Assembly (NCBI GenBank): GCA_048938855.1
Contig: JBHLLT010000008.1
Location: forward strand, 1-56,389
DNA length: 56,389 nucleotides
Direction: 5' to 3'
Source of the DNA: Promethearchaeota archaeon
GTDB lineage: Archaea; Asgardarchaeota; Lokiarchaeia; Sigyniarchaeales; SOKP01
Positions 31,536 through 51,351 of this stretch are shown here, in pieces; the first letter of the stretch is position 1, and the number at the start of each line of letters is the position of its first letter. The notes below the pieces were generated by a model that worked only from the letters and a program-made list of their open reading frames with translations, was not told the origin of the DNA and made no database searches. Both the position numbers and the translations under genes were made by a program.

Positions 31536-31672
31536 CGATATATTTTTTAATAAATGTGTAATCTGACATATTTTATATACATTTCTCAATAATTTTCATT
31601 TAAAAAAAGATTATTAAGACCTATTTCCTAGTGTATAATAATTATAAATTGAATTTATACGAGGGTAATGAA

Positions 31673-31840
31673 ATGAGTGATGTTAAAGATTCAAATGATA
31701 GTATTGTTAATGAATTAAAGATGATCAATAAACGGCTAAATAGAATATATTATTGGCTAGCTGCTTTCATTGTTATTTCTGTATTATTCTATCTATTTGT
31801 ATTTGTCAATATTCAAATTATTCTATCTAGAATTCCATAA
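31673..31840 (+). CDS. Small single-pass membrane protein, 55 aa
   Basis: GAGGGT then ATG at 31673; coiled segment ELKMINKRLNRI followed by a TM helix. Confidence 0.6.
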   Translation: MSDVKDSNDSIVNELKMINKRLNRIYYWLAAFIVISVLFYLFVFVNIQIILSRIP

Positions 31841-31880
31841 TAACTTTACAAGGATAAGGTTCCCTATTCTTGTGAAGTTA

Positions 31881-33344: not shown

Positions 33345-33516
33345 AAAATCAATCCGAATCTGAATTTATATATAAATAATAAATGAGGTAATTTTTCCTT
33401 AAAATTAAAACTACATGATCACAATTCTTTTAACAGTCATGAAAGAAGAAAAATAAATCTTATAATCAAATTCTTTTTTGATATACATACTAAGTTATAA
33501 TTATTTTAACAATTAA

Positions 33517-34953
33517 ATGAAATTAAATACTACACAAGTTCAAAGAGTAGCCTTAGTTAACCCAAATTTTATTACTAAGAGCATTACTGATAAATTTACG
33601 ATCCCCGCACTAGGTTTAGAATCTATTGCTGCAAATATCATAGATTTAGTTGAAGTTAAAATTATTGATGGAAAGGTTAGAAATTTAACGCTTAATGAAA
33701 TTATAAAAGAAATTAATGAATTCGACCCAGATATAGTTGGAATATCATGCTGTTTCACAATTGGAATTAATTTTGCTTTGAAAATTGCATATGAATCAAA
33801 AAAGTTAGGATATAAAACTATATTAGGAGGTTGGCATCCAAGTTTTGCTCATTCTGAGATAATAAAATACCCTTTTATTGATATTATAGTCCGAGGAGAG
33901 GGAGAATTTACTTTTCGAGAACTTATTGAAAATAAAAACTTGGAAGAAATCAAAGGAATATCCTATAAATATAATGGAGATGTTATTAATAACGCTGAAC
34001 GTCCTTTAATTAAGGATCTAAATAGATTGCCCCTTCCAGCTAGAAAATTGAGAGATACTACGACTTATTTTCAAATATTTCAAATGCCTTTAGATGCAAT
34101 TGAAACCTCAAGGGGTTGCCCTTATAATTGTACATTCTGTAATATACATCTTTTTCATCGAGGAATCTATAGAACAAAGAATACTTTACGAGTTATTCAA
34201 GAGTTAAAAATTATATCCCATCAAAAAAGACGTAAAAATGTACTAATAATAGATGATAATTTCACTGCGAATGTGGAGCGGGTTGAGAAAATTTGTGATG
34301 AGATAATAAAAGAGGGAATTAAGTTAGATTTAATTTGTCAAAGTCGGATTGATGTAATTAAAAACAATCCAAATATAATAAAAAAGATGGCTCAAGCAGG
34401 ATTTTGGTTGTTCTTCCTTGGTATTGAATCATTTAACCAAAAATCATTAAATGATATTCAAAAAAGGATCCAGTTTAGAGATATTGTTGAAGCAATAAAA
34501 ATCCTTCATGAGAACGATATTTTAATAATAGGGAGTATGTTAATTGGTTCAAGTCTGGATGAAGAAGAGAAAGACATAGATCTCATGATTAAGATTGTTA
34601 AAAAATTAGGAATCGATTTTCCTATCTATTCTATTATGACACCATTGCCAGGTACTAAATTTAGAGAGATTTTGATTGACAATGATCTTTTGCTTTCTCG
34701 AGATTGGAGTAAGTACAATTTTACAACAGCAGTTAACCGACTTAATAAACTTTCTAAAGAAAAATTAGAAGAACTATTGTCTAAAGCATATTATTCTGGA
34801 TATTTTAATAGGGGGTGGAAAGATACTCTTATTAGATTATATAAACAGAAAGGTATTCAATTTCTCTTAAATTTTAGGAGAATCTCTAGCATTATTAAAG
34901 ATTTTTTGAATTTTTTCATAAATATTATACGAATGAAAGCTAGTACAAAGTAG
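33517..34953 (+). CDS. B12-binding domain radical SAM protein (paralog 3)
   Basis: PALG, GGWHPS, RGEGE, ETSRGCPYNCTFC, IDDNF, GIES, TPLPGT. Confidence 0.93.
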   Translation: MKLNTTQVQRVALVNPNFITKSITDKFTIPALGLESIAANIIDLVEVKIIDGKVRNLTLNEIIKEINEFDPDIVGISCCFTIGINFALKIAYESKKLGYKTILGGWHPSFAHSEIIKYPFIDIIVRGEGEFTFRELIENKNLEEIKGISYKYNGDVINNAERPLIKDLNRLPLPARKLRDTTTYFQIFQMPLDAIETSRGCPYNCTFCNIHLFHRGIYRTKNTLRVIQELKIISHQKRRKNVLIIDDNFTANVERVEKICDEIIKEGIKLDLICQSRIDVIKNNPNIIKKMAQAGFWLFFLGIESFNQKSLNDIQKRIQFRDIVEAIKILHENDILIIGSMLIGSSLDEEEKDIDLMIKIVKKLGIDFPIYSIMTPLPGTKFREILIDNDLLLSRDWSKYNFTTAVNRLNKLSKEKLEELLSKAYYSGYFNRGWKDTLIRLYKQKGIQFLLNFRRISSIIKDFLNFFINIIRMKASTK

Positions 34954-35698
34954 TTAATTGTTTTAGAGTTATGAATTCAGCCTTTTTATTGAGAGAGTCC
35001 TTGATAAATTTTCTAAGTCTGGTAAGGAAGGAGTTTCCTGTATTAATCCATCGATCTAATCTAAAAAAAAAATTTATGAATAGACTAAAATTTTTTTTTT
35101 GATTGAACATCAAAGTTTTGACATTTATTGCTTCCCATGAATGGAAATATAATGTCATTAATTTCTTTCTTAGAATCCATTTTCTTACCAAATAAAAAAT
35201 TAAAGGTAATCTGAAGAAGACATTAAAACTGGAAGGGTATAATTCTTTAATCTTGTAGTTATTAGGTTGAGAGAATTTAGACCTTTTACTATATTTAATG
35301 GAAGAATCATATTTAAAATTTAAATCCTTCAATATTTGGAATAGAAATCTAGGTGGTTTTAAATATGGAGCTCGAAAACCAATTATTTCTGAATTTTGGG
35401 TTCTATTTTCAATCATTGTTTTGCTCTTCGAGATAATATTTTTACATTGTTCAAATGATAAATTATTTAATCGTTCATGATTTAAACTATGACAAGCAAT
35501 TTCATGTCCTTTACCTTCAATCAAATCCACAATTTGAGGCTGCTTTTCAATAACGCTTCCAGTACAAAAAAAAGTACTTTTGATTTGAAAATCGTCTAAT
35601 ATTTTTAAAATCTTAAACAATCCTATCTTCAAGCCTAAATCAGTATCAAGAAAATTAGGAATATCTCTTTCAATATCAAAAGTTAGAGCAATTTTCAT
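34940..35698 (-). CDS. CE4 polysaccharide deacetylase (NodB/PuuE-like)
   Basis: LTFDIE, STFF, EIACHSLNH, GFRAP, YDSS, YFHSWE; ATG at 35698 preferred over the TTG at 35716. Confidence 0.88.
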   Translation of the reverse strand: MKIALTFDIERDIPNFLDTDLGLKIGLFKILKILDDFQIKSTFFCTGSVIEKQPQIVDLIEGKGHEIACHSLNHERLNNLSFEQCKNIISKSKTMIENRTQNSEIIGFRAPYLKPPRFLFQILKDLNFKYDSSIKYSKRSKFSQPNNYKIKELYPSSFNVFFRLPLIFYLVRKWILRKKLMTLYFHSWEAINVKTLMFNQKKNFSLFINFFFRLDRWINTGNSFLTRLRKFIKDSLNKKAEFITLKQLTTLY

Positions 35699-35789
35699 TA
35701 TCAGATTATTGATCAATTTATTTGTTTAAGAAATTATATATTTATTTTAAAATTTATTTCAATATTTAAGTTCAGATTAAATGTAAAAA

Positions 35790-36908: not shown

Positions 36909-36929
36909 AAAGTTTTTAAGAACAGATTA

Positions 36930-37694
36930 CTATTTTTCCCAATTAATATCTTTTGCCAAATTATAAAATATATCCTTTTTCGAACGATATTGAGTAATAC
37001 GCCCTAAGCTACGACGAGTATTTAGAAATCTTCCACTTGTTAATACAGAAACAAAATTGAGTGTCATTATTTTACCTCTTTTCATTTTTCTTGTGAGATA
37101 TATTAATGAATCTGAAAAAACTTTGTCAATTCCTATCAGATTGTGTGGTAGTTGCTTAAATCCACCAACTTTAGAGAAAATGTCCCTTCTAACAATTATA
37201 TTACATCCAATAAGTTCAGGATATCCAAGTAGAGTTTTAAAAAAATAATATACATGCATATTAAAATTAAGAAAAAAATAATGAGTAATTGTAAAATTTT
37301 TAGAACCTAAATTAAATGAGAAAGCCTTTCCATCATAATATTTCACTCTTGCACTACAAGCAAAAAGATTTTTATGCTTTTCGAATATTCTATAAATCTT
37401 TTGCAAGAAGAGAGGATCTATTAAAGTATCAGCATCTAGAAATACTAGTAACTCACCAGAAGTTTTTGGAACTACATAGTTTAATTGAAGAGCTTTTCCT
37501 TTTTCAGGTGAAATATATACTGTCGCAAAATTTTTTGCAATGGTGACAGTATTATCAGCACTATGGCCATCAACTACTATAATTTCATATGGAATATCAC
37601 ATCTTTGCTTTTTAATAGCTAATAATGTACGTTTGATGTTGTTTTCCTCGTTATAAGTAGGGATTATTACCGATATCTTTGGATTGTGATTCAT
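36930..37694 (-). CDS. GT2 glycosyltransferase
   Basis: SVIIPTYNEE, VDGHSAD, FLDADT, G.N...RR..F..VGGF, TSGR. Confidence 0.92.
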   Translation of the reverse strand: MNHNPKISVIIPTYNEENNIKRTLLAIKKQRCDIPYEIIVVDGHSADNTVTIAKNFATVYISPEKGKALQLNYVVPKTSGELLVFLDADTLIDPLFLQKIYRIFEKHKNLFACSARVKYYDGKAFSFNLGSKNFTITHYFFLNFNMHVYYFFKTLLGYPELIGCNIIVRRDIFSKVGGFKQLPHNLIGIDKVFSDSLIYLTRKMKRGKIMTLNFVSVLTSGRFLNTRRSLGRITQYRSKKDIFYNLAKDINWEK

Positions 37695-37808
37695 TGTTTA
37701 TCTGGGGTAATTGAAAACAGAAAATCTATATATTTTAGAAGATGATGTGTTATTATTCAATACAAGTATTAGATTTATTATATAATTAATTGATTTATAA
37801 ATAAAACT

Positions 37809-38939
37809 ATGCCGAAAGTCTCAGGTAAAATGAAATTCTTAACAAAGGGATTCATAATTTCATTTCTTTTCTTAATCTTAAGTGCTTCATTAATTATATT
37901 ATTAATTCTAAATCACGTCTTTCTATCGATTCCTTGGATTAATGATTTTTATGAACTTATAAGACCTTGGTTATTAATTTTCTTCTATGATTATAACCTG
38001 TTTATTTATGCTGCAATTTTCATTTGTTATTCTGTTTTACTTGTATTATATGTTTTTGGGTATAATTTAGCAAAAGTAAAACATATGACAGGTTCAATAA
38101 TATTTGTTTTCAGTTTGTTAGGATTCGTTCTAGTTACTTTTATTGCTTCTCAATATTCTTACATAAGCATATTGTTTAACCAAGATATTACACTTAATAC
38201 AAGATTAATGTTACTTTTGTTATTTTTACCTATGAATTTTGCGCTAAGTCTATTTTTATTTTTAGTAAATACAGATTTCCTAATATTTTTAAAGGATTTA
38301 TTGAAGTCTAGAAAAATCTGGAAACGAAGAAGACCCGAATTCGAAATTGAAGTGAAAGGTAAAATTACAAATATAAATATACACACAAAAGAACATATTT
38401 TTACTCCTGTGCCTATGTTGATTATTGCGAAATATCTGCAGTCTAAAGGCTTTTCGGTATCTTGGTTTGTAAGAGGTGCCTTTAATCACTTAATCTCTAT
38501 AATTATTACTTATTTGACTGGGTGGCCGAGGGCTAGAAATATCTTATTTCGATTTACAGGAATGAAAATTGGTAAAAATTGCCATATCTCTCAAAAAGCA
38601 ATACCTGATCCTTTATTACCTGAATTAATTGAATTTGAAGAAGGTAGTGGGTGTGGTATTGGTGTCAAATTACTAACTCATAATGCGATGAATATACAAC
38701 ATGGAAGTTTCAGTTTTGGCCCTATAAAAGTGGGTAAAAATGCTAGAATTGGAGCTTATTCAGTCGTATTACCGGGAGTTACTATAGGAGAGGGTTCTAT
38801 CATAGGTGCAAATTCATTAATTAGTGAAGATATACCACCTTATTCGATAGCATTTGGTTCTCCTGCCAAAGTGATACGTGAATTAACAGATGATGAAAAA
38901 AAAATGGTAAATAAAGAATATGGAGATACTATTGGATAA
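37809..38939 (+). CDS. Membrane-anchored left-handed beta-helix (hexapeptide) acyltransferase
   Basis: About 4 N-terminal TM helices; GMKIGKNCHI, LLTH, PIKVGKNARIGAYSVVLPGVTIGEGSIIGANS, GSPAKVIR. Confidence 0.87.
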   Translation: MPKVSGKMKFLTKGFIISFLFLILSASLIILLILNHVFLSIPWINDFYELIRPWLLIFFYDYNLFIYAAIFICYSVLLVLYVFGYNLAKVKHMTGSIIFVFSLLGFVLVTFIASQYSYISILFNQDITLNTRLMLLLLFLPMNFALSLFLFLVNTDFLIFLKDLLKSRKIWKRRRPEFEIEVKGKITNINIHTKEHIFTPVPMLIIAKYLQSKGFSVSWFVRGAFNHLISIIITYLTGWPRARNILFRFTGMKIGKNCHISQKAIPDPLLPELIEFEEGSGCGIGVKLLTHNAMNIQHGSFSFGPIKVGKNARIGAYSVVLPGVTIGEGSIIGANSLISEDIPPYSIAFGSPAKVIRELTDDEKKMVNKEYGDTIG

Positions 38940-39708
38940 ACTTTTCAATCAATCCATTAACTTTTACACTATTATCATACATTGTTCTGTGTGAACCTTT
39001 ATCAATTATGAATAACTCTGTTTTAGGAATGTAATCATTTAACTCATTAATTGCTGCTTTAGAAACAATCCGGTCTTCACTACCATAAATTAAAATTGTT
39101 GGTTGAGAAATTGCACATAATCCCTCTTTTAATTTATACGTGTACGTCATGTTTTTAAAAGTTTTTAGAACAACAGCTTTAGGTAGTTTTAATGCATTTT
39201 TATATAATTTTTTAAACTCTCTAAATTCCTCTTCAGGGGATATGATTTTTCCAATAATCTTTTTCAGAAGTGCCCTATAAAACATTTTAAATAGAATATT
39301 TATCCAAAAAATCATTATTCTTTCTAATATTGATTGAGGCTTTCCTGAAGTTGAGCTTATAAGGATTAGTTTTTTCACTATTTTTGGCTTTTTAAGCACA
39401 ATGTCTTGTGCTATTAAACCACCTAAAGAATGGCCAATGAGAATGACCTTGTTATATTTAAGCAATTTAAGCAAATCAATTATCTGTTTAGTGTAGAACT
39501 CAATAGTATAATCTTCTCTAGGTTTATCTGATTTTCCAAAACCGGGTAAATCAAGTAAAATAATATGATTCTTAAGATTAAAATGATATAATTGATATTT
39601 CCATTCAAGAGAACTTCCTAACCATCCATGAATGAATACAAGGGGTATTCCTTCTAATTTATTATCATAATAAAAGATTTTGAGGTGATTTATATTGATA
39701 AGCGGCAT
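38929..39708 (-). CDS. Alpha/beta hydrolase
   Basis: FIHGW, DLPGFG.S, GHSLGG, GSEDRIV, GSH catalytic triad. Confidence 0.9.
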   Translation of the reverse strand: MPLININHLKIFYYDNKLEGIPLVFIHGWLGSSLEWKYQLYHFNLKNHIILLDLPGFGKSDKPREDYTIEFYTKQIIDLLKLLKYNKVILIGHSLGGLIAQDIVLKKPKIVKKLILISSTSGKPQSILERIMIFWINILFKMFYRALLKKIIGKIISPEEEFREFKKLYKNALKLPKAVVLKTFKNMTYTYKLKEGLCAISQPTILIYGSEDRIVSKAAINELNDYIPKTELFIIDKGSHRTMYDNSVKVNGLIEKFIQ

Positions 39709-39723
39709 TCTAAATGATACTTT

Positions 39724-40755
39724 CTATCTTAATATGTAATTATGAATAAAATTTCTCATTGGGTGTTTAACAAAATTGGTCGGATTCCAATAACATGGTT
39801 TAAAACAATCGCAGTAATCAAATTTAAATTTTCTTATCTTATTAACTCTTTCCTTATATGATAAATTTATGAAATCGTCGAATTTAATTGATGTATTAAC
39901 ATCTTCACAAAGCATTACTGTTCCATCATTATCAATTGAATAATATAAATCACCGGCATCACATTTCCAAGAATATTTATTATTATACCATTTATTCATA
40001 AAATAATAATAACTATTAGGAGACATAAGTTGAATTCCATGTCTCTTAAGATTTTGGATTACTTTCCTTAATTTATTCATTGTCTTCCTTTCTAACAATA
40101 AATTTGGGCAGAAACTTCGATATTTATATTGTTCATTAGGACTCTTAGACGAATGTACTGGATCTATTGAGAATCGGCAATCTAACCTTGCTATAATAGC
40201 TTTTATTAGCGGAATAAGTTCTTTTATATTATCTCTTGTGTTTATAATATGAATACTATAATCAATATTTTCAGGATATCTATTTTTAATATCTTGAAGT
40301 AAGTCAATTAATTCAGGCCGAAATCTTTTAGGAGTAAAAGCTGTTTCTTTAAAACTATCAATACTTATACCAAGTAGAAAATATCCATATGATGCAAATT
40401 CTTCTAGTAGATCTTTAGTTAATAAAGCTCCGTTTGTAACTACATGAGTGAATATGTTTAAATCTATACAATGTTTTAAAATTTTCCCCAAATCGGATCT
40501 AAGTGTAGGTTCACCACCATAAATTGTAATAAATCTACATCCTTGATTGTATAACTGGTTTACAATGTTTTTCCAATGCTGTAATGAGATGTCTGATTTT
40601 AAATTGCCTTTAGAAGTAGCACAATAATAACAATTAAAATTACATCTACGAGTAAAAAATATACTTACAAATGTTGGACCATTATTTACTCTAAATATCC
40701 TCTTCAAATAACTAATTCCTAAATTTCTCAGTACTCTATTTTTTATATCATTCAT
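39724..40755 (-). CDS. Radical SAM protein with C-terminal Cys-rich (Twitch/SPASM-like) domain
   Basis: CNFNCYYC, GGEP, TNG, CDAG..Y..ID.DG....C, CDCFKPC; ATG at 40755 preferred. Confidence 0.88.
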   Translation of the reverse strand: MNDIKNRVLRNLGISYLKRIFRVNNGPTFVSIFFTRRCNFNCYYCATSKGNLKSDISLQHWKNIVNQLYNQGCRFITIYGGEPTLRSDLGKILKHCIDLNIFTHVVTNGALLTKDLLEEFASYGYFLLGISIDSFKETAFTPKRFRPELIDLLQDIKNRYPENIDYSIHIINTRDNIKELIPLIKAIIARLDCRFSIDPVHSSKSPNEQYKYRSFCPNLLLERKTMNKLRKVIQNLKRHGIQLMSPNSYYYFMNKWYNNKYSWKCDAGDLYYSIDNDGTVMLCEDVNTSIKFDDFINLSYKERVNKIRKFKFDYCDCFKPCYWNPTNFVKHPMRNFIHNYILR

Positions 40756-40816
40756 TTCAATTTCATGATGATTTAAACAGAACAAAACATTTTAAATATT
40801 TATTTAATATTTAATT

Positions 40817-41842
40817 TTGGTATTAAACATATTGACGATTTCAACTTCAAATCCAGTATCCATTGTCGTTCCCATAAAGAACAGACGTGATCTTTTACCT
40901 AACCTAATTAAGAATCTATCTAATATTGATTACAACGAATATGAAATAATAATTGTTGATGATTGTTCAACGGATAATACAAAGGATCTATTAAAACAAT
41001 ATTCAATTAAATCCATACTTTTAGAAAGATCAGTAGGATCTGCAGAAGCTAGAAACCTTGGAATTAAACAAGCAAAAAATGAAATTATTGCACTAACTGA
41101 TTCTGATTGCTTTGTTTCAAGAAATTGGTTGAAAAATCTAGTACCATATCTTAACTCCTATGATGTGGTTGGGGGAAGAGTTATATTTTGTGATGATGCG
41201 GAAAAAAAAATTAATCCTTTCAATACAAAAGAAGAAACAGTATTAAAGAAGGATACTTCGATTAATTTTCTTAATACAAGTAATATGTTATTTAAAAAAA
41301 AAACATGGAAGTCCTCTGGTGGTTTTCTAAGCTATAGGATTGAAGATTTGGAGTTTTCATGGAGATTATTAAATAAAGGCTTTAAGTTAATTTATTCTCC
41401 TAAAGGTTTTGTAATTCATCATGGTAATAGGACACCTATCCAAAATATTAAGAAATATTTCCTATATGGAAAGTCATATTCGAAAATAGCTTTTATTCAT
41501 AAAATGAGTTTCACATTTAAAACAGATCGAATTCTTGATAAAAGTAATCTTTTTGATTATCTAAAACTAATATCACTTCCCTTTCTTTTACTATTGGCTT
41601 CAATTCTTTCGGGTTTTATAATTTTTAATATCTATTTAAATATGTCTGCAAGTTTTCTTTCAATAACAATATGTTTTCTCCTTCTATTCCGACTCATAAG
41701 AAGAATTGATATTTTATTCAAAATCTATAAAACGACTATAATATTTGGAATTGTAAATTATTCGATAATATATATGTTTAAGAAGAAATACAACTTAGGG
41801 AGAAATAAGAATAAAGCATATGATTTAAAGTTGAAATCTTGA
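40817..41842 (+). CDS. GT2 glycosyltransferase with C-terminal TM helices
   Basis: SIVVP.KNR, VDDCSTD, ARN.G, TDSDC, EDLEFSWR. Confidence 0.9.
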   Translation: MVLNILTISTSNPVSIVVPIKNRRDLLPNLIKNLSNIDYNEYEIIIVDDCSTDNTKDLLKQYSIKSILLERSVGSAEARNLGIKQAKNEIIALTDSDCFVSRNWLKNLVPYLNSYDVVGGRVIFCDDAEKKINPFNTKEETVLKKDTSINFLNTSNMLFKKKTWKSSGGFLSYRIEDLEFSWRLLNKGFKLIYSPKGFVIHHGNRTPIQNIKKYFLYGKSYSKIAFIHKMSFTFKTDRILDKSNLFDYLKLISLPFLLLLASILSGFIIFNIYLNMSASFLSITICFLLLFRLIRRIDILFKIYKTTIIFGIVNYSIIYMFKKKYNLGRNKNKAYDLKLKS

Positions 41843-42946
41843 CTTTATTTCTTCTGTAATATCAGAAATATCTGAACATTCCTGATCAGAGAAATTTGGA
41901 TAATAATAAGTGGGTTTATGCAAATTTCTACAATAGTGTTTCTTGAATACTGTGAATTTTTCTGTAGATAATTCCGTGTGATCGAGTATTTTATCTATTA
42001 CAATTTCTGGAGTCTCACATAACTCATCATACCTAATTATAAGGGTTGCTTTTTTTAAGTTCTTATTAGTTTCAATTTGATCTGCAATAAAATTATAGAT
42101 CGATGCCCAATAGTGTGCCCAACCTTTTACATAGGTTTTTTTTTTTCTCCATAATTTATGAATCTCATTAATTAAATCTGTATTACCCACATTGATGCAG
42201 ATTTGATTGCGACCAAATTCATTATGGCCTACTATTTTCAACCAATCGGGTAGTAGAGGATTTTCTTGTTCTAGTATTCTAAAGAGTTTTGATTGTTTTA
42301 TCATTGAAGCAATATGCTCTTCAGGGTTACGAATAATCAAGAGAATCTTAGAATCTGGGAAAATTTTCAGCAAGTAATCCAATCTGCTAACAAGATAATT
42401 ATTTTTTGCTAAATACCTTTGACATTTCTGATTTATTATTAATTTTTTCAAATGAGTTTTATAGAATTTCTCAAATTTTGGATTTGAATCACTTTTAGTG
42501 AGGATATTGGGAACATTTTCATTATGTAGATTTTTAAAAAATTTTAACCAAAATGCCTCTTCAACCGCTTCAGGACTTTCACGGTTAACGAAAATACCAT
42601 CTCTATGGAGTCTTTCAAAAGGTTGTTTATAAAAATTGAACTTTTTAGCCATTTCGCTAAACCAATCGGGAAGATATGGCATAAGAACATTTTGATATTT
42701 ATGCGACGCTAAATCTGGATGTTTATCTAACATTTCTAAAATAATTGTTGTTCCTGCACGAGCAAGACCGGTTATATAAATAGGTCTGTCAATATTTATC
42801 TTTTTTATATCTCTATGCATAAAAATCGTTTCAATTTTGTCAAGCAATAAGGAGATTGATTTAAATGAACTAAAAAATTTAGTTATTCCGTATCCAGCAT
42901 AACTCGTGAGTGGAAATTTATGTGAATTTTGATCATTAGATTTCAA
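41825..42946 (-). CDS. PAPS-dependent sulfotransferase
   Basis: PIYITGLARAGTT (5'-PSB), KNN, IRNPEEHIAS (3'-PB), RYDEL; GGAGA before the TTG start. Confidence 0.9.
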   Translation of the reverse strand: MKSNDQNSHKFPLTSYAGYGITKFFSSFKSISLLLDKIETIFMHRDIKKINIDRPIYITGLARAGTTIILEMLDKHPDLASHKYQNVLMPYLPDWFSEMAKKFNFYKQPFERLHRDGIFVNRESPEAVEEAFWLKFFKNLHNENVPNILTKSDSNPKFEKFYKTHLKKLIINQKCQRYLAKNNYLVSRLDYLLKIFPDSKILLIIRNPEEHIASMIKQSKLFRILEQENPLLPDWLKIVGHNEFGRNQICINVGNTDLINEIHKLWRKKKTYVKGWAHYWASIYNFIADQIETNKNLKKATLIIRYDELCETPEIVIDKILDHTELSTEKFTVFKKHYCRNLHKPTYYYPNFSDQECSDISDITEEIKSRFQL

Positions 42947-43195
42947 GTTCTCATCTCCTATTAGTTAAGTGAACATTTTTTTATGTAAATAACGATTGAA
43001 TGATTTGATTTCCCCTTAACTCTAAATTCAAACTAATTTCATGTTTTTACATGTTAATTAAAGATTTTTAATTAATTTATAGAGAATTTTCTTTAATATT
43101 TATTTTAATTGTCAAATAATATATAAACATCACAAGATCTATTCTGATCTTAAATTATATTTGAATAAAAAATTAAATTCGAGTATAGAGAAAAA

Positions 43196-44047
43196 ATGTT
43201 TAAAATTAAATCTGATTCTTGGCAAAGTAAAATTATTATCCTTGCTGTCTTTATTATCGTAATCATTCTGACAGCAGAAGTAGATTGGGCCGCAGAAAAC
43301 TCCGGGGTAGGACTTATGACTCGACTTTTTTGGTTAATTAGTTTACTAATTTTAGGACTAGTTTTACCAATTGGATTTATGTATCTTGCTGGTAATAAAG
43401 AAATAGAAAGAGGCGAATCTGACAAAAAAGGGTTAATTATTGCGATAGTCCTATTTTTGATTGCTAATGGGATCCCAATTATCTTTTATGTTGTTCTTGG
43501 AACTCCACCTGGTCCTTTATTATATCTACAATTATCACTATTTGGTTTAATCCCTGCTTTTTTTCTACAACCAAAAAGAAAACAATATAGAATCCTTATA
43601 CTAGTAATTCTATTTGCAGTAATTATTATCCCTATTGGTATTCTTGTGAATTTTGCCATTGATGATCTATGGGCAGGTGCACTTGATAACACGATGTATT
43701 ACTTATCTTTTTGGGGACTTTTGATGACATTCTTTTATCTTATTCTTGCTATTGGCTGGAAATTGGGTGGTGGATCTAAAAGACAAAGTTGGAACATTTT
43801 TCTAGCGGGAACACTATTACAATTTAGTACACTTGAAGATTTCTTTTATTTTCTACTAAATGGGCAATCACTTCCGGGATTATGGCCTTGGATGAATAAT
43901 TTTGTAATTAATCTTGAAGTTTTGTTTGGTCACATTCCAACTGATTTAGATCTTCTTGTTTTTTGTTTAATAACAAGCGCTATAGCGATCCTTATCCTTT
44001 TTGATATTCATGGAATTATCTGGACAAAAATCAAGGAAAAAAAATAA
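43196..44047 (+). CDS. Multi-pass membrane protein of unknown function
   Basis: About 8 hydrophobic helices; LEDFFYF..W.W motif. Confidence 0.75.
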   Translation: MFKIKSDSWQSKIIILAVFIIVIILTAEVDWAAENSGVGLMTRLFWLISLLILGLVLPIGFMYLAGNKEIERGESDKKGLIIAIVLFLIANGIPIIFYVVLGTPPGPLLYLQLSLFGLIPAFFLQPKRKQYRILILVILFAVIIIPIGILVNFAIDDLWAGALDNTMYYLSFWGLLMTFFYLILAIGWKLGGGSKRQSWNIFLAGTLLQFSTLEDFFYFLLNGQSLPGLWPWMNNFVINLEVLFGHIPTDLDLLVFCLITSAIAILILFDIHGIIWTKIKEKK

Positions 44048-44074
44048 TTTTTTTTATATTTATTAAGAATTGAT

Positions 44075-44578
44075 TTAATAAATCAAAGTAAGTCCAATTA
44101 TTAAGAATATTGAATTTAATACAAGTCCTGCAATTCCCAAACCCTTTCCTGCCTTCAATACCCCAGTTTCTGGTTCAAATCCACTAGCTGTATTACTATT
44201 TACTATAGAAACTATTCCAAATATTATACCTATAACACGAGCAACACTAAGACCTATACGTATTCCATATAAATAATATATTGGCAAACCATATCCAATT
44301 TGGAGTGTAACTAATGCAATAATTAAAGAGATAATACCAAAAGCTAAAGAAATCTTTGAATGCTTGCCCGGTTCTGACCCCTTTTGAAACTTAGAGGGGT
44401 ATTGCGGTACTGGGATACGGGTAGTTGGTGTGGTTGGCTGCTGTACCCCGTATGTTGGTTGTTGTACTCTATATGTTGGTTGTGGTGGTTCAGGTTCCTT
44501 TATAATTTCAGATCCGCAGTTCTGGCAAAACCTTTGATTTTCACTTTCTAATTTTACGCCACAATTTTGACAAAACAT
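44075..44578 (-). CDS. Zinc-ribbon + Pro/Thr-rich linker + 3-TM protein (paralog A)
   Basis: MFCQNCG...FCQNCG, QPTY repeats, hydrophobic C-terminus; ATG 44578 chosen by alignment to paralog B. Confidence 0.85.
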   Translation of the reverse strand: MFCQNCGVKLESENQRFCQNCGSEIIKEPEPPQPTYRVQQPTYGVQQPTTPTTRIPVPQYPSKFQKGSEPGKHSKISLAFGIISLIIALVTLQIGYGLPIYYLYGIRIGLSVARVIGIIFGIVSIVNSNTASGFEPETGVLKAGKGLGIAGLVLNSIFLIIGLTLIY

Positions 44579-44782
44579 AATACGACCTTCAAAAGTCTTG
44601 ATATTCATATCATATATGTTTATTAAATATAATTATAGTATTAAAAATAAATACTTGCTATACATATAGAATATTTCAAAATTTCTTCATGGAATGTTTA
44701 TTAGTTTTAATAAATCCAGTTTATTATAGATGAACAACAATTTTCTTTTATTTTTGTAAAATATTCATTCAAAAATTTTTCT

Positions 44783-45280
44783 CTAAATCCTAGTAAGTGC
44801 AAATACAAGAAATATTGCATTTATTATAAGTCCTATAATACCTAAAGCATTTCCTGCTTTTAAAATAGAGGTTTCTGGTTCCACTCCTTTTGCTTTCCCG
44901 CTATTTACTACAGATACAATTCCAAATATTATGCCTATGCCACGAGCGATAGCAAGGCCTACATATATTCTAGGCACATAATAAAATCCCATGCTATATC
45001 CAAATTGGAGTGAAAATAATCCAATAATTAAAGAGACAATACCAAAACCTAAAGCTATTTTTGAATATTTTCCTGGTATACCCCCTGTTTTAAACTTAGA
45101 GGGATATTGTGGGACTGGTATTGGGGTCGTTGAGGTTGGTGTGGTTGTTGGTGCAGTTACTTGTCCTACTCCAAAGGTTGTTTTCGGTGGTTCAGAAACA
45201 TCTATAATTTCGCTTCCACAATTTTGACAAAACCTTTGATTTTCCATTTCTAATTCTGCACCACAGTTTTGACAAAACAT
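44783..45280 (-). CDS. Zinc-ribbon + Pro/Thr-rich linker + 3-TM protein (paralog B)
   Basis: MFCQNCG...FCQNCGSEII; PVPQYPSKF and GIIFGIVS.VNS shared with paralog A. Confidence 0.87.
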   Translation of the reverse strand: MFCQNCGAELEMENQRFCQNCGSEIIDVSEPPKTTFGVGQVTAPTTTPTSTTPIPVPQYPSKFKTGGIPGKYSKIALGFGIVSLIIGLFSLQFGYSMGFYYVPRIYVGLAIARGIGIIFGIVSVVNSGKAKGVEPETSILKAGNALGIIGLIINAIFLVFALTRI

Positions 45281-45413
45281 AATTTATCCTCCAAAATTTT
45301 TGACTTTCAAATAATATATATTATAATTATTTAATATAATTATAATAACAAAAATAAATACTTCCACTACTTAGAGAATCTTTTGTTATATCTTTAATTT
45401 TTATTTTTCCTTT

Positions 45414-46715
45414 CTAATAAACCCAATTAATTATTGAAGAGCAACTTTTACCTTGAGCGTTCTTTAATCGTCCCAAAACCCTAAAAGCAGCACCTTCATA
45501 TCCACATTCGGGACATTTACTTTCTGTGATGAGCTCTACAATATCATCTACCAAAACAGCTTGATTTATACTTCCATTCACCCCATAGGGTGTGATTACT
45601 TCGAGTAAACCTTCCATCCCTTTACTAACAGGATCTAATGTGTCTAAATCTCTTACTATAATTCGTGAAGTATTAGGACAATGTAATATAAAATCTTGGT
45701 ATTTCTCGGACCAATGCCCTCCAAAAAGTGTGGGGCCTTCTGTAAATGCGTAAATATCCGCTATATCCTTAGGTTTGATATTAAATACTTTTTCATAACA
45801 TTCAATAAATCTACTTTTATCCACTTCACCCATCTTAGCTTCACCCTTGACACCGTCCCATCCTCCGCCCCCACAACCAACAAAGGAAATCCCATCAAGA
45901 TCGTTGTAAATATTTTCTTTTAGCAATCTCTTCTCAAACATATTATTCATTAAAAGAGCACTTCCGCCAAAAATTATTTTACTTACTTCAATATCCTTCC
46001 AATAACCTGTATCTTTAACTTGTTTAATCATTTTTAGCATTTTAGAAACATCTAAAATAAATCCCCCTTTTAATGATAGAGTTGAAATAATTGCCCATAT
46101 TGTTTTTAAAACTTTCATTTTTACCAGATATTCCTCATGTCCATAATATTCCCAAGGTTTATTCATACATGCTGTAAAATAACGTGTTTTTTCGATATAC
46201 GCAAATCCCTTTGCACTTCTTTTAGCCATTACCGTCATAAATAAACGATCCGGCGAGAAATTAAATACAAGGCATCTTTTGGCATCAATATTTAATTCTC
46301 TCCATCCAAAAAATTCAGAAAATACTTTAATAGAATTGTATTGTAATTGATCAAAATCATCTAAAGTTCGTGGAACTATCGATGGATCTCCAGTTGTAGA
46401 AGAAGAACACGAATAGAGAGCGATATTTTCATGAGGAACTTTTAATAAGTTTAATGTCCGATTTCCTGATTTTTTATATATATCTGAAGGAATAAAAGGA
46501 ATGTGCTCTAGATCCTCAATAGATAATTCATCAGGAATTTTAAAATCAAATTTACTACATAAATTATCTTTGTAATATTTACAGTTTTTAAACGATAAAC
46601 TAATTTGTTGTAGTAAATCCTTGCAAAATACATCATCTGGGTAATTACGAAATTCAAAATCAAAATATTTCTTTTTTAATTCTTCAGGTAAGTGATCATG
46701 AAACTTAAGGAACAA
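45414..46715 (-). CDS. LuxE-like acyl-protein synthetase (ANL adenylating fold)
   Basis: IPFIPSDIYK, SCSSSTTGDPS P-loop, GGGGWDG, DIYAFTE, EGLLEV, LVDD, FRVLGR....GKSCS (LuxE C-terminal Cys); GGAG before the TTG start. Confidence 0.8.
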   Translation of the reverse strand: MFLKFHDHLPEELKKKYFDFEFRNYPDDVFCKDLLQQISLSFKNCKYYKDNLCSKFDFKIPDELSIEDLEHIPFIPSDIYKKSGNRTLNLLKVPHENIALYSCSSSTTGDPSIVPRTLDDFDQLQYNSIKVFSEFFGWRELNIDAKRCLVFNFSPDRLFMTVMAKRSAKGFAYIEKTRYFTACMNKPWEYYGHEEYLVKMKVLKTIWAIISTLSLKGGFILDVSKMLKMIKQVKDTGYWKDIEVSKIIFGGSALLMNNMFEKRLLKENIYNDLDGISFVGCGGGGWDGVKGEAKMGEVDKSRFIECYEKVFNIKPKDIADIYAFTEGPTLFGGHWSEKYQDFILHCPNTSRIIVRDLDTLDPVSKGMEGLLEVITPYGVNGSINQAVLVDDIVELITESKCPECGYEGAAFRVLGRLKNAQGKSCSSIINWVY

Positions 46716-46812
46716 TGTAGGTTTCTCCTAAATAATGATTATATCTCATAATTCATAATCATTTAAGATTGATATGCAAATAAATGTAGAATAAAAAATT
46801 ATAAAAAAATTA

Positions 46813-48165
46813 TTAAATATTTGAAAGAGCCATTATTTCTGCTTCTTCTCGCTCCAATAACATTGGAGTTTTCTCCCAACTTATTTCTTTTGGAAGTTTA
46901 AATTGCCGTAAAAACATATAAAGATGTATAAAACCACTTATTGGCCAATAAAATATAAGACTGAAATGTTTATCACAATATTTTCTTATAGTATTGAATA
47001 AGAAGCCAAATTGAAAGAAAATACAAGATAATGTCCAGAATAGTAAATAATATTCACCAAAAACAAACTGAAATATTGCAAATGCAATTTCGATTGGTAA
47101 CCAAGTATCCATATTTGCTAAAACCATCATGGTCATATTTCTTGCAATTATTAGTTTTTTCCCATCTTTATATTCGCTTTTCATGCTCATTAATGTTGGC
47201 ATATCTCCGGTAAATCCTGCTAACCACCGTGTGCGTTGTTTTACTAAAATCTCCCAACTATTGGGAACATACTCATAGATTTTAGCTTTTGGGGAAAATT
47301 TAATTAATACACCATCTAAATTTAAAAGTGCTGAAAGATAAAGATCTTCTGTCATTGAATTTTCATTAAAACCCCCATACTTCTTAAGATATTTTGTTCT
47401 CACCGCAAAATTTCGTCCAAATGAATAAGCAGAAGATCCCAATCTATTTTTAACTTCAAATAATAATCCCCCACCAGAAACCATACCATAATCCAAAAAA
47501 ATTCCCCTAGTCAGACTATTATCTTTCCAGTTTTTAACAAGAACAGGGCCAATAACAGCATCAATCTTTTCGCGATGAAAGGCAGAAATTAAGTTTTTAA
47601 GAGTATTAGATTTTAATATACACCCCGAATCGTATAGAACAACAATATCATTTTTTACATGTTCCAAACCATAATTTAGCGCTGCAGGTTTTCCTTTTTT
47701 AGGTAAGTCTTTTGATAATACCATTATGTCTATGTTACTATTTTCTCTAGCAAAATGATTTGAAAATTCCGTAGTATCATCCGTAGACCCACTAGTTATT
47801 ACTATTATTTGGATCTTTTCTTTAGGATAATCAGATTCAACAATAGAATTTAATGTTCTCTCTAATAGTACTTTCTCATTTTTGGAGGCAATAAGAATAC
47901 TAATAGCTTCATAATATGGTGTTTTCGGTTTATAGCCACTTCCAAAAGAGGCTATGAAATGAATTCCATAATATAGAATTAATCCTAATAACATTAATAG
48001 CCCAATTAATGGAAAGATAAACCACCAATAAGTTAAAGGATCTAGGATAAATGTATCAATTGCTTCTTTTACTCCAGAAGACCAAAATGGTGGAAAATAC
48101 ATATGCATTACAATAAATAACACTAACCAAACAGAACCATATAATAAATATCTATAAAGTTTCAT
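46813..48165 (-). CDS. Membrane GT2, cellulose-synthase-like (QxxRW) family
   Basis: N- and C-terminal TMs, GKPAALN.G, TEDL, QRTRW, WEKT. Confidence 0.9.
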   Translation of the reverse strand: MKLYRYLLYGSVWLVLFIVMHMYFPPFWSSGVKEAIDTFILDPLTYWWFIFPLIGLLMLLGLILYYGIHFIASFGSGYKPKTPYYEAISILIASKNEKVLLERTLNSIVESDYPKEKIQIIVITSGSTDDTTEFSNHFARENSNIDIMVLSKDLPKKGKPAALNYGLEHVKNDIVVLYDSGCILKSNTLKNLISAFHREKIDAVIGPVLVKNWKDNSLTRGIFLDYGMVSGGGLLFEVKNRLGSSAYSFGRNFAVRTKYLKKYGGFNENSMTEDLYLSALLNLDGVLIKFSPKAKIYEYVPNSWEILVKQRTRWLAGFTGDMPTLMSMKSEYKDGKKLIIARNMTMMVLANMDTWLPIEIAFAIFQFVFGEYYLLFWTLSCIFFQFGFLFNTIRKYCDKHFSLIFYWPISGFIHLYMFLRQFKLPKEISWEKTPMLLEREEAEIMALSNI

Positions 48166-48192
48166 TTTTTCAATCTCCTTTTTTGAATATTA

Positions 48193-49131
48193 TTACTTAT
48201 TTATGTTATCGATCTTCTTTAAGTTCTTCCATATATACTTTCCAAAAAGAATTATAGAAAGCACCATAATAACTAATAAAGTAATTTGGTATATGAACAT
48301 AGTCCATGTGATTATCCAAGTGTGCGAAGCATTCCAGATTGTAGCAGAAGGGTTAATCATATTAGTTATTAATGTAGCAATACTTGACACCCCATACATT
48401 ACAAAAAAAGTAGTTTGAACAATAACACGTGTTATTCTCTCACCAATGAAAGGTTTCGTTTCACTCAACCCCAAACCTTCATGTCTTGCTCTCATATACT
48501 CATAAATGAATATAAGGTATATATTTGTCCATACTAACCATGTAAAATCAAGTCCATATGTCGATAAAATCAACATACTTGTAGGTATTAAACCAACGAG
48601 CATTAAAATATCACTAACCCGATCTATCACATTATCAAACCAAGCACCAGTTTTTGATTTAATATCAAGTAGTCTCGCTATTGCTCCATCAATTCCATCA
48701 ATTATTCCTGTAAATAATACTAGTAATCCAAGTACGAAAAACCAGGATCCATATAATGGTTGCACGGTAATCGGGTCAAGTGAATGTCCCACACTAGCCA
48801 CTATAACACCCCAGAATATGAGAATTGATAGAACTAAATTCAGAATTGTAACTTTATTCGGACTTACTCCCATTTTTATAAAAAGTTTTGCTCCTGCATA
48901 TGTTATTGGCATGTATAACTTTCCTGCAGGATCTTTTTTCATTTGTGCAAATTGTTCATCTAATTTATGAGCTTGTCCATGATCCTTGAGCCAATCTTTT
49001 ATGAATTCATCACAAGTCATAAATTCTTGTTTTGGTCTTCTTTTTGGTATCCCACTAAGTAGAATAATGACTATAATTACAACTAAAATTAAAGGAAACA
49101 CTACTGTAAATAATAAAGCATATAATGTCAT
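48193..49131 (-). CDS. CDP-alcohol phosphatidyltransferase family (archaetidyl headgroup synthase-like)
   Basis: SPNKVT, DGIDGAIAR....SKTGAWFDNVIDR signature, YMRAR.E, GER. Confidence 0.9.
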   Translation of the reverse strand: MTLYALLFTVVFPLILVVIIVIILLSGIPKRRPKQEFMTCDEFIKDWLKDHGQAHKLDEQFAQMKKDPAGKLYMPITYAGAKLFIKMGVSPNKVTILNLVLSILIFWGVIVASVGHSLDPITVQPLYGSWFFVLGLLVLFTGIIDGIDGAIARLLDIKSKTGAWFDNVIDRVSDILMLVGLIPTSMLILSTYGLDFTWLVWTNIYLIFIYEYMRARHEGLGLSETKPFIGERITRVIVQTTFFVMYGVSSIATLITNMINPSATIWNASHTWIITWTMFIYQITLLVIMVLSIILFGKYIWKNLKKIDNINK

Positions 49132-49380: not shown

Positions 49381-50175
49381 ATGTCAAGTTCGAGTTTAGA
49401 AGTAAAATGGGTTGATTTTGTTAAAAAACTTCGAGGTGTGGGCGCCTTATTATTCTTTGTATTCGTTCCATATTTAGCATTTTTTATAATTCCAATCCAG
49501 TTCGTTTTAACTCTAATCGCTATAAGGGATATCAAAATTATTAATCAAGAATTGAACAACTCACTTCTTTACAATTTTTATTCAAAATACCAAACAGCAA
49601 CTATAGTTAAATTCATTGGTTCAATAGTAGTTCATTTAGGAGCAGCGTTGATGGCAGCAGTCATAACTTTTGGTTTTCCTCATCTTTTACCCTACAATGG
49701 ATTACCACCTGCCATCGTTTTATTAATCATTGGATTTATAATAATGATTATTGGTAGTGCTGTTGAAGTTGGTGCTTGGGATAATCTCAAATTTTTTATA
49801 AAGGATCACAAAGATATGTTTCCAGCAAGAAATCTTTATGATACTATATCAAGCATAGAAAATTTACGTACAGGAGCTTTCCTTTGGGCTCTTGGTTTTC
49901 TAATTATTCCAATAGTGATAGGGTGGATATTTCAGCTTATAGGATATTTCACTTTAAGTAATATTGCCAAATGGGGTATGAAACTTGAACCAATCATCCC
50001 AATGTCTCAAGATTTCGAATCAGTATCTAATATACCTCAAAAACTTCAGTCAGTTCCCATATCTCCTCTAGAAACAGAACTAAAAGATATTATTAAGTTT
50101 TGTCCTATGTGTGGAGCTAAAATTCCTGAAGGAGCTATATATTGTGGAGAATGTGGGGTGAATTTAAGAAGTTAA
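49381..50175 (+). CDS. Membrane protein with C-terminal zinc ribbon
   Basis: Several TM helices, C-terminal FCPMCG...YCGECG. Confidence 0.8.
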   Translation: MSSSSLEVKWVDFVKKLRGVGALLFFVFVPYLAFFIIPIQFVLTLIAIRDIKIINQELNNSLLYNFYSKYQTATIVKFIGSIVVHLGAALMAAVITFGFPHLLPYNGLPPAIVLLIIGFIIMIIGSAVEVGAWDNLKFFIKDHKDMFPARNLYDTISSIENLRTGAFLWALGFLIIPIVIGWIFQLIGYFTLSNIAKWGMKLEPIIPMSQDFESVSNIPQKLQSVPISPLETELKDIIKFCPMCGAKIPEGAIYCGECGVNLRS

Positions 50176-50217: not shown

Positions 50218-51351
50218 TTAGAATGCAATATATGCTTCTTTTATTGCTGAACAACCACCACATTTTACACAACCAGCTTTATTCTTTAAAGGGTTAACAT
50301 CATACTGTTTCATTAATTTTGCTGCAATTGTGTAAATTTCTAATAATTCACTATAATTTGTGGCGGGTAATTCTTTTTTTCCGGGAATTGACCTTACTGG
50401 TGTAATATAAGGAATAACACCAATAGCAATTACGTTCTCTAAATCTTTTAAAAATTTTTCTTTGGATTCTCCGAATCCAGTTAATATATAGCTACTAACC
50501 TGATTCTTTCCAAAGACATCTATGGCATGGTTCCAATTCTCCTCGAAAATTTCATAGGAAATACTAGATTTACCAGGCGTAATCTCCTTTCTTAGTGATT
50601 CATCAAGAACTTCAATATGAATTCCAATCGAATCCGCACCAGCTTCTTTCAACCTATCTATATAACTTAAATCATCTAAAGCTTCAATTTGAACATGTAC
50701 AGGAATATCAGGGTGTTTTGCTTTAATTCCATTTAATAACTCAATATAACGATTTGCTCCCTTATCGATTTTTTCATCTGTTCCGCTTGTTAATGTCATA
50801 TGAGAGCATCTCCCTTCTTTTTTTGCTGCCGTAATTACTTCAGACATCTGTGTAGCATTTTTTTCTTCTATTGTTGTATCATATTGTAGACTTAATTCAA
50901 TACCGCAAAATGCACAAGGTTCACCACATGCCCAATAAACACATTTTTGGTATATTGTACTGGCTAAGCAATCGATACCATGCACCAGAGCTACTTTTTT
51001 CATGTCTATCCCATCTGAAGTCTTTTGTGTATAAAATCTTGGATTTTTAACAAGTTCTACTTCCGCAAAAGATCGATCATTTATTCTATCATAGATTTTA
51101 AAATATTCTCCATTCTTTTCTCCAAGGACTAAGTTTGTTTTTTCTTGACGATTCCAAAGAGCAACATTAACTAAAGTGCTATTATCCTCTAATATAAAAT
51201 ATCTCCCACCGAGAGGTCCAGCTCCGCCTTTCCTTCCAAAATCAATTTCAATTCCTTGGTCTTTATATTTATTGAACAATTCTTTGTCTAAGTATAGTCC
51301 TTTACACAATAATTCAGTTTTTTGGATAAGTGCAGTTTTTGCATCAATCAT
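50218..51351 (-). CDS. Radical SAM protein, MSMEG_0568/NitD-like family
   Basis: KTELLCKG, RKGGAGP, TSDG....VALVHG.D.LAST, C....CGEPCAFC, TPGK, C-terminal AGCVKCGGCS. Confidence 0.8.
   Translation of the reverse strand: MIDAKTALIQKTELLCKGLYLDKELFNKYKDQGIEIDFGRKGGAGPLGGRYFILEDNSTLVNVALWNRQEKTNLVLGEKNGEYFKIYDRINDRSFAEVELVKNPRFYTQKTSDGIDMKKVALVHGIDCLASTIYQKCVYWACGEPCAFCGIELSLQYDTTIEEKNATQMSEVITAAKKEGRCSHMTLTSGTDEKIDKGANRYIELLNGIKAKHPDIPVHVQIEALDDLSYIDRLKEAGADSIGIHIEVLDESLRKEITPGKSSISYEIFEENWNHAIDVFGKNQVSSYILTGFGESKEKFLKDLENVIAIGVIPYITPVRSIPGKKELPATNYSELLEIYTIAAKLMKQYDVNPLKNKAGCVKCGGCSAIKEAYIAF

Follow-up and report, generated by a model that had tools for sequence, protein, structure and literature searches.

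A LuxE homolog without LuxC beside a CDP-alcohol phosphotransferase and a membrane glycosyltransferase: the conserved edge of a possible glyco-phospholipid tailoring cluster in Lokiarchaeia

Nod-factor synthesis combines a membrane GT2 oligomer synthase (NodC), a cytoplasmic CE4 deacetylase (NodB), fatty N-acylation of the amine so released (NodA), sulfation (NodH/NoeE) and hexapeptide-type O-acetylation (NodL). In mycobacteria, PgsA1 (Rv2612c), PatA (Rv2611c) and PimA (Rv2610c) make acylated phosphatidylinositol mannosides (PMC4792965), and HpnI, HpnK and HpnJ convert bacteriohopanetetrol into its cyclitol ether (PMC5462960). The acyl-protein synthetase LuxE works through R355 and then C364 on a flexible C-terminal tail with the motif TRxxKGCxLS, and roles have been assigned to these residues (PMC9157457). 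Here, we describe a lokiarchaeal locus that recalls each of these systems in part. It lies in a 56,389-nucleotide (nt) stretch of DNA, hereafter the window, from a Promethearchaeota archaeon (assembly GCA_048938855.1, positions 1 to 56,389 of contig JBHLLT010000008.1, which is contig C20 of a 3.95-Mb genome with 97% completeness and 7% contamination). It includes three adjacent genes that encode a CDP-alcohol phosphotransferase, a membrane-integrated GT2 glycosyltransferase and a homolog of LuxE; the pair upstream of LuxE will be called CDPOH and GT2L.

An initial annotation of this DNA had described the three genes as a co-directional trio, with gaps of 27 nt (CDPOH/GT2L) and 97 nt (GT2L/LuxE), that might make a fatty-acylated glyco-phospholipid or anchor. 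Open reading frames (ORFs), Pfam matches and motif reading agree with its account of the genes, gaps, domains and motifs, and both the P-loop and the C-terminal cysteine (GKSCS) that it had pointed out in the LuxE homolog are present. The reading that we favour, with a probability of roughly 0.45, is that the three genes form the conserved edge of an accessory cluster, specific to Lokiarchaeia, that assembles and tailors a membrane-anchored glyco-phospholipid or short lipoglycan at the cytoplasmic face. Each enzyme comes from a known family; the combination, with a LuxC-less LuxE in a putative glyco-phospholipid cluster, is new. A literature search found no published description of an association between LuxE, CDPOH and a GT2.

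The argument for a shared pathway starts from gene linkage. The LuxE and CDPOH proteins were searched against 300 genomes from the phylum and 70 from the family, and the window proteins were mapped onto 38 loci bearing a CDPOH ortholog, 37 of them informative. Apart from one copy of 49% identity in a second family, orthologs of CDPOH are confined to a single family of Lokiarchaeia, where 32 of the 68 genomes sampled have one. The check on neighbourhood conservation proposed in the initial annotation gave a clear answer: GT2L lies directly downstream of CDPOH, in the same direction, in 35 of the 37 loci, which come from at least eight genera. The two exceptions carry an inserted ORF (L071) or have no GT2L (L057). 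A LuxE ortholog (62-84% identity) follows downstream in 24 loci, in 19 of them directly; in L051, L052, L056 and L058 one or two genes, including an alpha/beta hydrolase, a B12-binding radical S-adenosylmethionine (SAM) enzyme (B12-rSAM) and unknowns, are inserted before it, and the hydrolase found between GT2L and LuxE in L051 and L052 is a second one. CDPOH-GT2L is the invariant core, and LuxE is an optional accessory module. The idea that the trio is a self-contained unit did not hold up; what is found instead is this core with an optional LuxE, set within a cluster of about 19 kb.

The linkage of the three genes is not chance. The flanks vary from locus to locus, such that LuxE can adjoin a gene for a left-handed beta-helix (LbH) acyltransferase (L044, L079), zinc-ribbon genes (L040-L046) or a GT2 gene (L048, L053), and because these flanks differ between genera, inherited synteny alone does not explain the adjacency. 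Every genome in which a LuxE ortholog was found has CDPOH as well, a contig-edge fragment being the sole exception. In addition, a second LuxE lineage, typified by a paralog on contig C54 of the source genome, lies within the cluster in eight loci. It occupies the interval between the CE4 and UDP-galactopyranose mutase (Glf) genes in L084 and L085, sits beside a small GT2 gene in L058 and L071, and adjoins the LbH gene in L047, L049 and L050; in the other family, at L082, it provides the last gene in the order CDPOH-GT2L-GT2L-LuxE. Altogether, a LuxE-family gene is present in 28 of the 37 loci. That such genes were recruited repeatedly speaks more strongly than any other evidence for LuxE chemistry as part of the pathway, and the functional linkage proposed at the outset is supported, with LuxE joined to the pair in relatives and never seen paired with LuxC.

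Could LuxE nonetheless be a neighbour of CDPOH-GT2L through inherited synteny alone and work elsewhere, for example in carboxylic-acid catabolism? The gene probably has its own promoter (see below), the two other LuxE paralogs of the genome lie in unrelated contexts, and nine loci have no LuxE-family gene, as such a separation of functions would lead one to expect. Against this stand the survival of the adjacency across rearranged flanks on both sides in at least eight genera, the independent placement of the second LuxE lineage in the cluster, also in another family, and the restriction of LuxE orthologs to genomes with CDPOH. Considering these patterns, we regard the absence of any shared pathway as very improbable.

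The spacer between GT2L and LuxE is conserved and has features of its own. Immediately after the GT2L stop codon comes an oligo-T run, with which the spacer begins in every case; a box TTTAT(A/T)T(A/G) (TTTATATA-like), then ATCAA, lies some 55-60 nt ahead of the LuxE start codon, and the TATA-like box is kept in eight of nine close relatives. In 19 other loci the corresponding spacers are 43-176 nt long, compared with CDPOH/GT2L gaps of just 7-86 nt. In its layout the spacer resembles an archaeal terminator with a promoter behind it, a resemblance to be read with caution in DNA of 30% GC. On this basis, LuxE probably forms a transcription unit of its own or has an additional promoter.

How closely does the third protein resemble LuxE itself? 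It matches PF04443 with 89.4 bits (gathering cut-off 24.9), its P-loop reads SSSTTGDPS, and its tail has the form GR-x6-GKSCS, the C-terminus being GR-LKNAQ-GKSCSSIINWVY. A phmmer search of the single sequence against PDB returned noise only and nothing convincing, but a profile of 60 relatives found the solved Photobacterium LuxE (7XC6_E) with an E value of 2.7e-55 over residues 25-370 of 373, as against 1.3e-15 for the best PaaK-family chain. Judged by this profile, the protein is a true LuxE-clade member, nearer to LuxE than to PaaK. Residues S104, T107, S112, E326 and D391 of the ANL adenylation motifs are invariant or nearly so in the 60 sequences, and R416 and C425 are each kept in 59. 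In the profile alignment, R416 falls on the catalytic Arg of LuxE and Cys425 on the acylated Cys364 (RR...KGC), and the distance from Arg to Cys is 9 residues in both proteins (R416-C425 and R355-C364). The AlphaFold model, with a mean predicted local distance difference test score (pLDDT) of 89, has the PaaK-family ANL fold, and its tail (residues 420-433) is disordered (pLDDT <50). The features shared with the lux enzyme therefore include the P-loop, a GGGW-K motif, the catalytic Arg, the Cys nine residues on and a flexible tail (PDB 7XC6; PMC9157457). Going by the chemistry of its family, the homolog should form an acyl-AMP and then an acyl-Cys thioester on its mobile tail, without the use of coenzyme A (CoA).

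The absence of LuxC from the window, noted in the initial annotation, extends to the whole genome: a search with PF05893 found no match anywhere in the 3.95 Mb, and none of the 37 related loci showed a LuxC. The homolog, as far as its sequence defines it, has the features of LuxE and lacks the partner that defines the lux fatty-acid reductase system, which also includes LuxD and luciferase and activates a C14 fatty acid; a LuxC-like reduction to aldehyde was rejected as the fate of the acyl group because the genome has no LuxC. Other differences from lux LuxE are found in the protein, which is 60 aa longer, with an N-terminal extension, a hydrophobic insert at residues ~200-220 and a tail that ends CSSxxxW, and in its setting within a glycolipid-type cluster. 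The insert is modelled as a helix of lower confidence (VLKTIWAIISTLSL) over a stretch where true LuxE shows a gap, and may be a membrane-association or partner-binding element. The subfamily is small, with 289 matches at E <= 1e-3 among 1.84 billion representatives, and one single 50%-identity cluster covers the orthologs. No PP-binding or acyl carrier protein (ACP) domain (PF00550) was found in the 97%-complete genome.

Three LuxE paralogs, this one included, are encoded by the genome, and the other two are in unrelated contexts. One of them (C20:82966-84147, 393 aa) lies directly upstream of, and co-directional with, a gene resembling NADPH-dependent FMN reductase, a pairing that superficially recalls lux systems; the other (C54:40937-42127) has an APH kinase and an NHL protein nearby. 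Neither context, on C20 or on C54, provided a functional lead. The same genome has PlsC-type acyltransferase domains (PF01553) at G000:C62:1862-3028 and C25:19341-19715, two of them in one 560-aa frame, which, with no ACP at hand, bear on the ester-lipid capacity of Lokiarchaeia.

GT2L matches Glyco_tranf_2_3 with 109 bits (gathering cut-off 27), and places a GT-A core between two N-terminal and four C-terminal helices. Its TED and QRTRW motifs are invariant among 25 orthologs, and it has the features of membrane-integrated GT2 synthases, namely a GT-A core flanked by transmembrane (TM) helices, TED and Q(Q/R)xRW. Among NCBIfam models, its matches are to PgaC (102 bits, cut-off 422), NodC (45) and HpnI (32), all under the cut-off. 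The AF2 model (pLDDT 88.5) has as its closest folds hyaluronan synthase, PcManGT (an archaeal mannosyltransferase), BcsA and the chitin synthase Chs1, and the helix topology of GT2L is like that of a minimal membrane synthase. Single-transfer and processive enzymes alike would fit this fold and these motifs, which cannot separate the two. Unusual arrangements of GT2L are found in one genome, where a second copy of the cluster (L081; G135:C47:1-16000) has three GT2L paralogs around a CDPOH gene with an in-frame TGA, while at L057 CDPOH is followed directly by LuxE with no GT2L.

A processive GT2L leads to the alternative that the locus makes a secreted or capsular polysaccharide. In this model GT2L would be a synthase-translocase of the PgaC, NodC or hyaluronan synthase type that extrudes a beta-glycan, CDPOH would supply a phospholipid primer or phospho-alcohol substituents, and LuxE and the other enzymes would decorate precursors or oligomers in a manner similar to NodB, NodA, NodH and NodL. 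Pneumococcal type 3 capsule is built on phosphatidylglycerol. The structural matches to hyaluronan synthase, BcsA and chitin synthase suit this model, as do PgaC as the top NCBIfam match, the further match to NodC, and the TED and QxxRW motifs; the non-processive PcManGT, however, is an equally good fold match. Further evidence on both sides comes from the rest of the cluster, to which we return below.

CDPOH matches PF01066 (CDP-OH_P_transf) with 36.7 bits (gathering cut-off 22) and has the complete motif D-x2-D-G-x2-A-R-x8-G-x3-D-x3-D, in the form DGIDGAIAR-x8-G-AWF-D-NVI-D, which aligns to that of AF2299, the nearest solved sequence. The best-scoring characterised subfamilies, which have this catalytic motif in common with it, are the BT_1523-type phosphatidylinositol-phosphate synthase (PIPS; 75 bits, cut-off 350) and the archaetidylinositol-phosphate synthase (AIPS; NF040950, 61.6 bits, cut-off 180). 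Unlike these, CDPOH scores far under the equivalog cut-offs and carries an additional TM helix and linker at its N-terminus. Of the five CDP-alcohol transferase paralogs in the genome it is also the most divergent; three of the others are better AIPS candidates (130-154 bits) and one is archaetidylserine-synthase-like. No inositol-phosphate synthase (MIPS; PF01658) match was found in the genome; inositol phosphate is thus an unlikely head group and was rejected as such. The lipid donor is a different matter. The genome encodes a single CarS, and no separate CdsA was found in it, so that CDP-archaeol, the donor named in the initial annotation, remains the expected one, being the only CDP-lipid that the genome can be seen to make; CDP-diacylglycerol was rejected for want of a CdsA apart from CarS.

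In genus g5, a glucose-1-phosphate cytidylyltransferase (282-294 bits, cut-off 300) is encoded directly after CDPOH-GT2L or beside the CE4 gene. The resulting CDP-glucose might serve the CDP-alcohol transferase as donor or be a precursor of deoxysugars. As a lead for the locus described here it was dropped, since the gene is confined to g5 and has no ortholog in the source genome.

The wider gene set is spread over positions 30066-49131 of the window, about 19 kb, with the trio at its conserved edge (Table 1). Its three B12-rSAMs find their best NCBIfam matches in HpnJ and BchE (145-199 bits, under the cut-off), with HpnR weaker at 22-42% of its cut-off. Elsewhere, the B12-rSAM triplet lies directly downstream of CDPOH-GT2L or CDPOH-GT2L-LuxE: the order CDPOH, GT2L, LuxE and three B12-rSAMs, all co-directional, occurs in L055, L058, L074 and L078, while among loci without the LuxE ortholog the pair is followed by the triplet (L070, L072, L076, L077) or, in g5, by the cytidylyltransferase. 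The most constant companion of CDPOH-GT2L is the LbH acyltransferase, which is present in most loci with or without LuxE.

Table 1. Features of the locus and of related loci; positions are those of the window unless a locus or contig is named.
Feature	Position	Strand	Basis or remarks
B12-binding radical SAM	30066-31535	+	Pfam, NCBIfam, synteny
B12-binding radical SAM	31881-33344	-	Pfam, NCBIfam, synteny
B12-binding radical SAM	33517-34953	+	Pfam, NCBIfam, synteny
CE4 polysaccharide deacetylase	34940..35716	-	PF01522 72 bits, NodB 53 bits; syntenic in most loci
UDP-galactopyranose mutase (Glf)	35790-36908	+	Pfam/NCBIfam; syntenic
GT2, 254 aa	36930-37694	-	Pfam/NCBIfam; syntenic
Polytopic membrane domain fused to LbH (hexapeptide) acyltransferase	37809..38939	+	
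Alpha/beta hydrolase	38929-39708	-	
Radical SAM	39724-40785	-	best match PTO1314 family
MftF-like GT2	40817-41842	+	
Sulfotransferase	41825-42946	-	faint NoeE match, 23 bits
Polytopic membrane protein	43196-44047	+	no family; copies beside the cluster in most loci
Zinc-ribbon/PT-linker/TM protein	44075-44608	-	
Zinc-ribbon/PT-linker/TM protein	44783-45280	-	
LuxE-clade acyl-protein synthetase homolog	45414..46715	-	433 aa, TTG start; PF04443, profile vs 7XC6_E, model
Spacer GT2L/LuxE	46716..46812	-	97 nt, conserved
GT2L	46813..48165	-	450 aa; Pfam, NCBIfam, AF2 model
CDPOH	48193..49131	-	312 aa; Pfam PF01066, catalytic motif, AF2299 alignment
DUF996-like membrane protein, C-terminal zinc ribbon	49381..50175	+	divergent from CDPOH; syntenic in ~13 loci
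MSMEG_0568-like radical SAM	50218-51351	-	279 bits, cut-off 304
LuxE paralog and FMN reductase-like gene	G000:C20:81945-84147 (L006:5946-8148)		
Glucose-1-phosphate cytidylyltransferase (genus g5)	L073:11251-12018	+	near-equivalog score
Glucose-1-phosphate cytidylyltransferase (genus g5)	L075:6605-7363	-	near-equivalog score
Glucose-1-phosphate cytidylyltransferase (genus g5)	L057:15780-16535		near-equivalog score

The cellular location of these enzymes bears on the choice between a lipid-linked product and an extruded polymer. The tailoring enzymes are mostly cytoplasmic and need SAM, ATP or 3'-phosphoadenosine-5'-phosphosulfate, and the CE4 enzyme has no signal peptide or TM helix in its sequence and is therefore probably cytoplasmic like NodB. 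A polysaccharide locus would explain the NodB match of the CE4 enzyme and the faint NoeE match of the sulfotransferase, and the patchy, shuffled distribution of the cluster is typical of surface-polysaccharide loci. Because the tailoring enzymes all look cytoplasmic (the radical SAMs, the ATP-dependent LuxE and the CE4 enzyme alike), however, they could not reach an extruded polymer, and the cluster showed no recognisable PgaD, PgaA, Wzx, Wzy or ABC exporter. The evidence therefore favours assembly on a lipid at the inner membrane face over the decoration of an extruded polymer, and we consider a secreted polysaccharide a possible but somewhat unlikely product.

The B12-rSAMs suggest yet another use for LuxE. 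Perhaps the protein serves as a tether, such that the acyl group on its Cys425 tail is the substrate of the B12-rSAMs, which would methylate, cyclise or rearrange it into a new lipid tail or head group. The co-directional six-gene order in four loci would fit, as would the resemblance to HpnJ and HpnR, both of which modify lipids. Since the triplets also follow CDPOH-GT2L in the four LuxE-less loci, however, the substrate of the B12-rSAMs cannot depend on LuxE, and HpnJ works on a sugar and not on an acyl chain. On this evidence, a role of LuxE as tether is improbable.

An anchor analogous to glycosylphosphatidylinositol (GPI) was also suggested early on, with the acylated glyco-phospholipid being moved to C-terminal sorting signals such as those of Loki-CTERM proteins. 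Its one support is that the order of chemistry (head group, GlcNAc, de-N-acetylation, acylation) resembles the early GPI steps, the cluster having a CE4 gene. Across the 37 loci no transamidase, archaeosortase or PIG-like gene was seen; Pfam scans of the cluster gave no PIG-type gene, although PIG families were not searched genome-wide. With no MIPS found in the genome, inositol is unlikely here too, and about half of the related genomes do not have the cluster. We give the protein-anchor model very little credence.

Returning to the glyco-phospholipid reading, what would the pathway look like? All of its steps we infer from family chemistry and gene linkage. CDPOH would join CDP-archaeol, made through the single CarS, to a dedicated alcohol, probably not inositol phosphate, to give an archaetidyl-X primer. 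GT2L, presumably co-transcribed with CDPOH and similar to hyaluronan synthase, NodC and PgaC, would then glycosylate the head group once or a few times. Sugar tailoring would follow in the cytoplasm, with deacetylation by the CE4 enzyme, rearrangement or methylation by the B12-rSAMs, the action of Glf and further GT2s, and sulfation. The LuxE homolog would adenylate a carboxylic acid, probably a fatty acid, and form the thioester on its own Cys425 tail, so that, in an organism that lacks ACP, one and the same protein would serve as both synthetase and acyl carrier. From acyl-S-LuxE, the acyl group would pass to a partner other than LuxC, the likeliest candidates being the membrane LbH acyltransferase and an alpha/beta hydrolase; alternatively, the B12-rSAMs might act on the acyl chain first. 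The predicted outcome is an O- or N-acylated glycolipid. The more specific proposal, that a combined activator and carrier of the LuxE type, without CoA or ACP, hangs ester- or amide-linked fatty or radical SAM-modified chains on an archaeol glycolipid and so makes a hybrid membrane lipid of isoprenoid ethers and fatty acyl chains by a route without described counterpart, is tentative and on balance unlikely.

This scheme has a parallel in the PgsA1/PatA/PimA system, in which a CDP-alcohol transferase, a glycosyltransferase and an acylating enzyme are likewise encoded side by side and the acylated glyco-phospholipid primes lipoglycans. The mycobacterial enzymes, however, comprise a soluble GT4 and a PlsC-type acyltransferase, use palmitoyl-CoA and an inositol head, whereas the lokiarchaeal locus has a membrane GT2, a LuxE predicted to acylate itself, and no MIPS; the likeness is one of logic, not of homology. 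The Hpn pathway shares with the cluster the glycosylation of a membrane-lipid alcohol by a GT2, de-N-acetylation and a B12 radical SAM rearrangement; HpnI matches GT2L weakly, and HpnJ is the best or second-best match of the B12-rSAMs of the cluster. It differs in that the cluster deacetylase is of the CE4 and not the HpnK type, no hopanoid genes are present, the scores are far under the cut-offs, and CDPOH and LuxE have no counterpart. The likeness to the Nod system is weak when measured by hidden Markov models (NodC 45 bits, NodB 53, NoeE 23), and the locus, unlike that system, has no NodA homolog, would activate its acyl groups by LuxE, and includes a CDP-alcohol transferase.

Several observations weigh against a fatty-acylated glyco-phospholipid. 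The nearest folds to the GT2L model are processive polymer synthases, which would fit a secreted polysaccharide equally well, and all NCBIfam equivalog scores are far under their cut-offs. The T-run and TATA-like box make it less likely that LuxE is simply co-transcribed with the pair. The cytidylyltransferase of g5 hints that CDPOH might use a CDP-sugar or CDP-alcohol donor instead. The core product cannot require LuxE-dependent acylation, given that nine of the 37 loci lack a LuxE-family gene within the range fetched; the cluster as a whole is present in only about half of the genomes of the family. Finally, PaaK-family relatives activate aromatic or small acids, and a fatty acid is therefore not assured as the substrate of the LuxE homolog.

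Eukaryotes have no closer known relatives than the Asgard archaea, a group whose envelope and lipid chemistry has scarcely been explored. The cluster described here is conserved and lineage-specific, and joins an archaeal head-group enzyme, a synthase-type GT2, a LuxC-less LuxE and B12 radical SAMs. To our knowledge, LuxE-family proteins have so far been understood only in bioluminescence; if the proposed acylation is correct, they would have a second role, as ACP-independent acyl donors. Acylated glycolipids anchored on archaeol would, if real, provide a testable case of mixed acyl/isoprenoid lipids in a lineage central to the debate over the lipid divide, although the relevance of the cluster to that divide is speculative. 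Should the product be merely a variable surface glycan, the locus would still be useful for the study of Asgard envelope diversity, and less surprising.

Some neighbouring genes show patterns of their own. The radical SAM and the MftF-like GT2 at 39724-41842 form a divergent pair that, in genera g1 and g4, accompanies the cluster on its LuxE side. The MSMEG_0568-like radical SAM stands alone, without other genes of the Nit1C cluster, and is syntenic with the DUF996-zinc-ribbon gene in about 10 loci. The latter belongs, with the two zinc-ribbon genes beside LuxE, to a family of small membrane proteins with a zinc ribbon, a Pro/Thr-rich linker and 3-4 TM helices, which flank the cluster nearly everywhere, often in two or three tandem copies.

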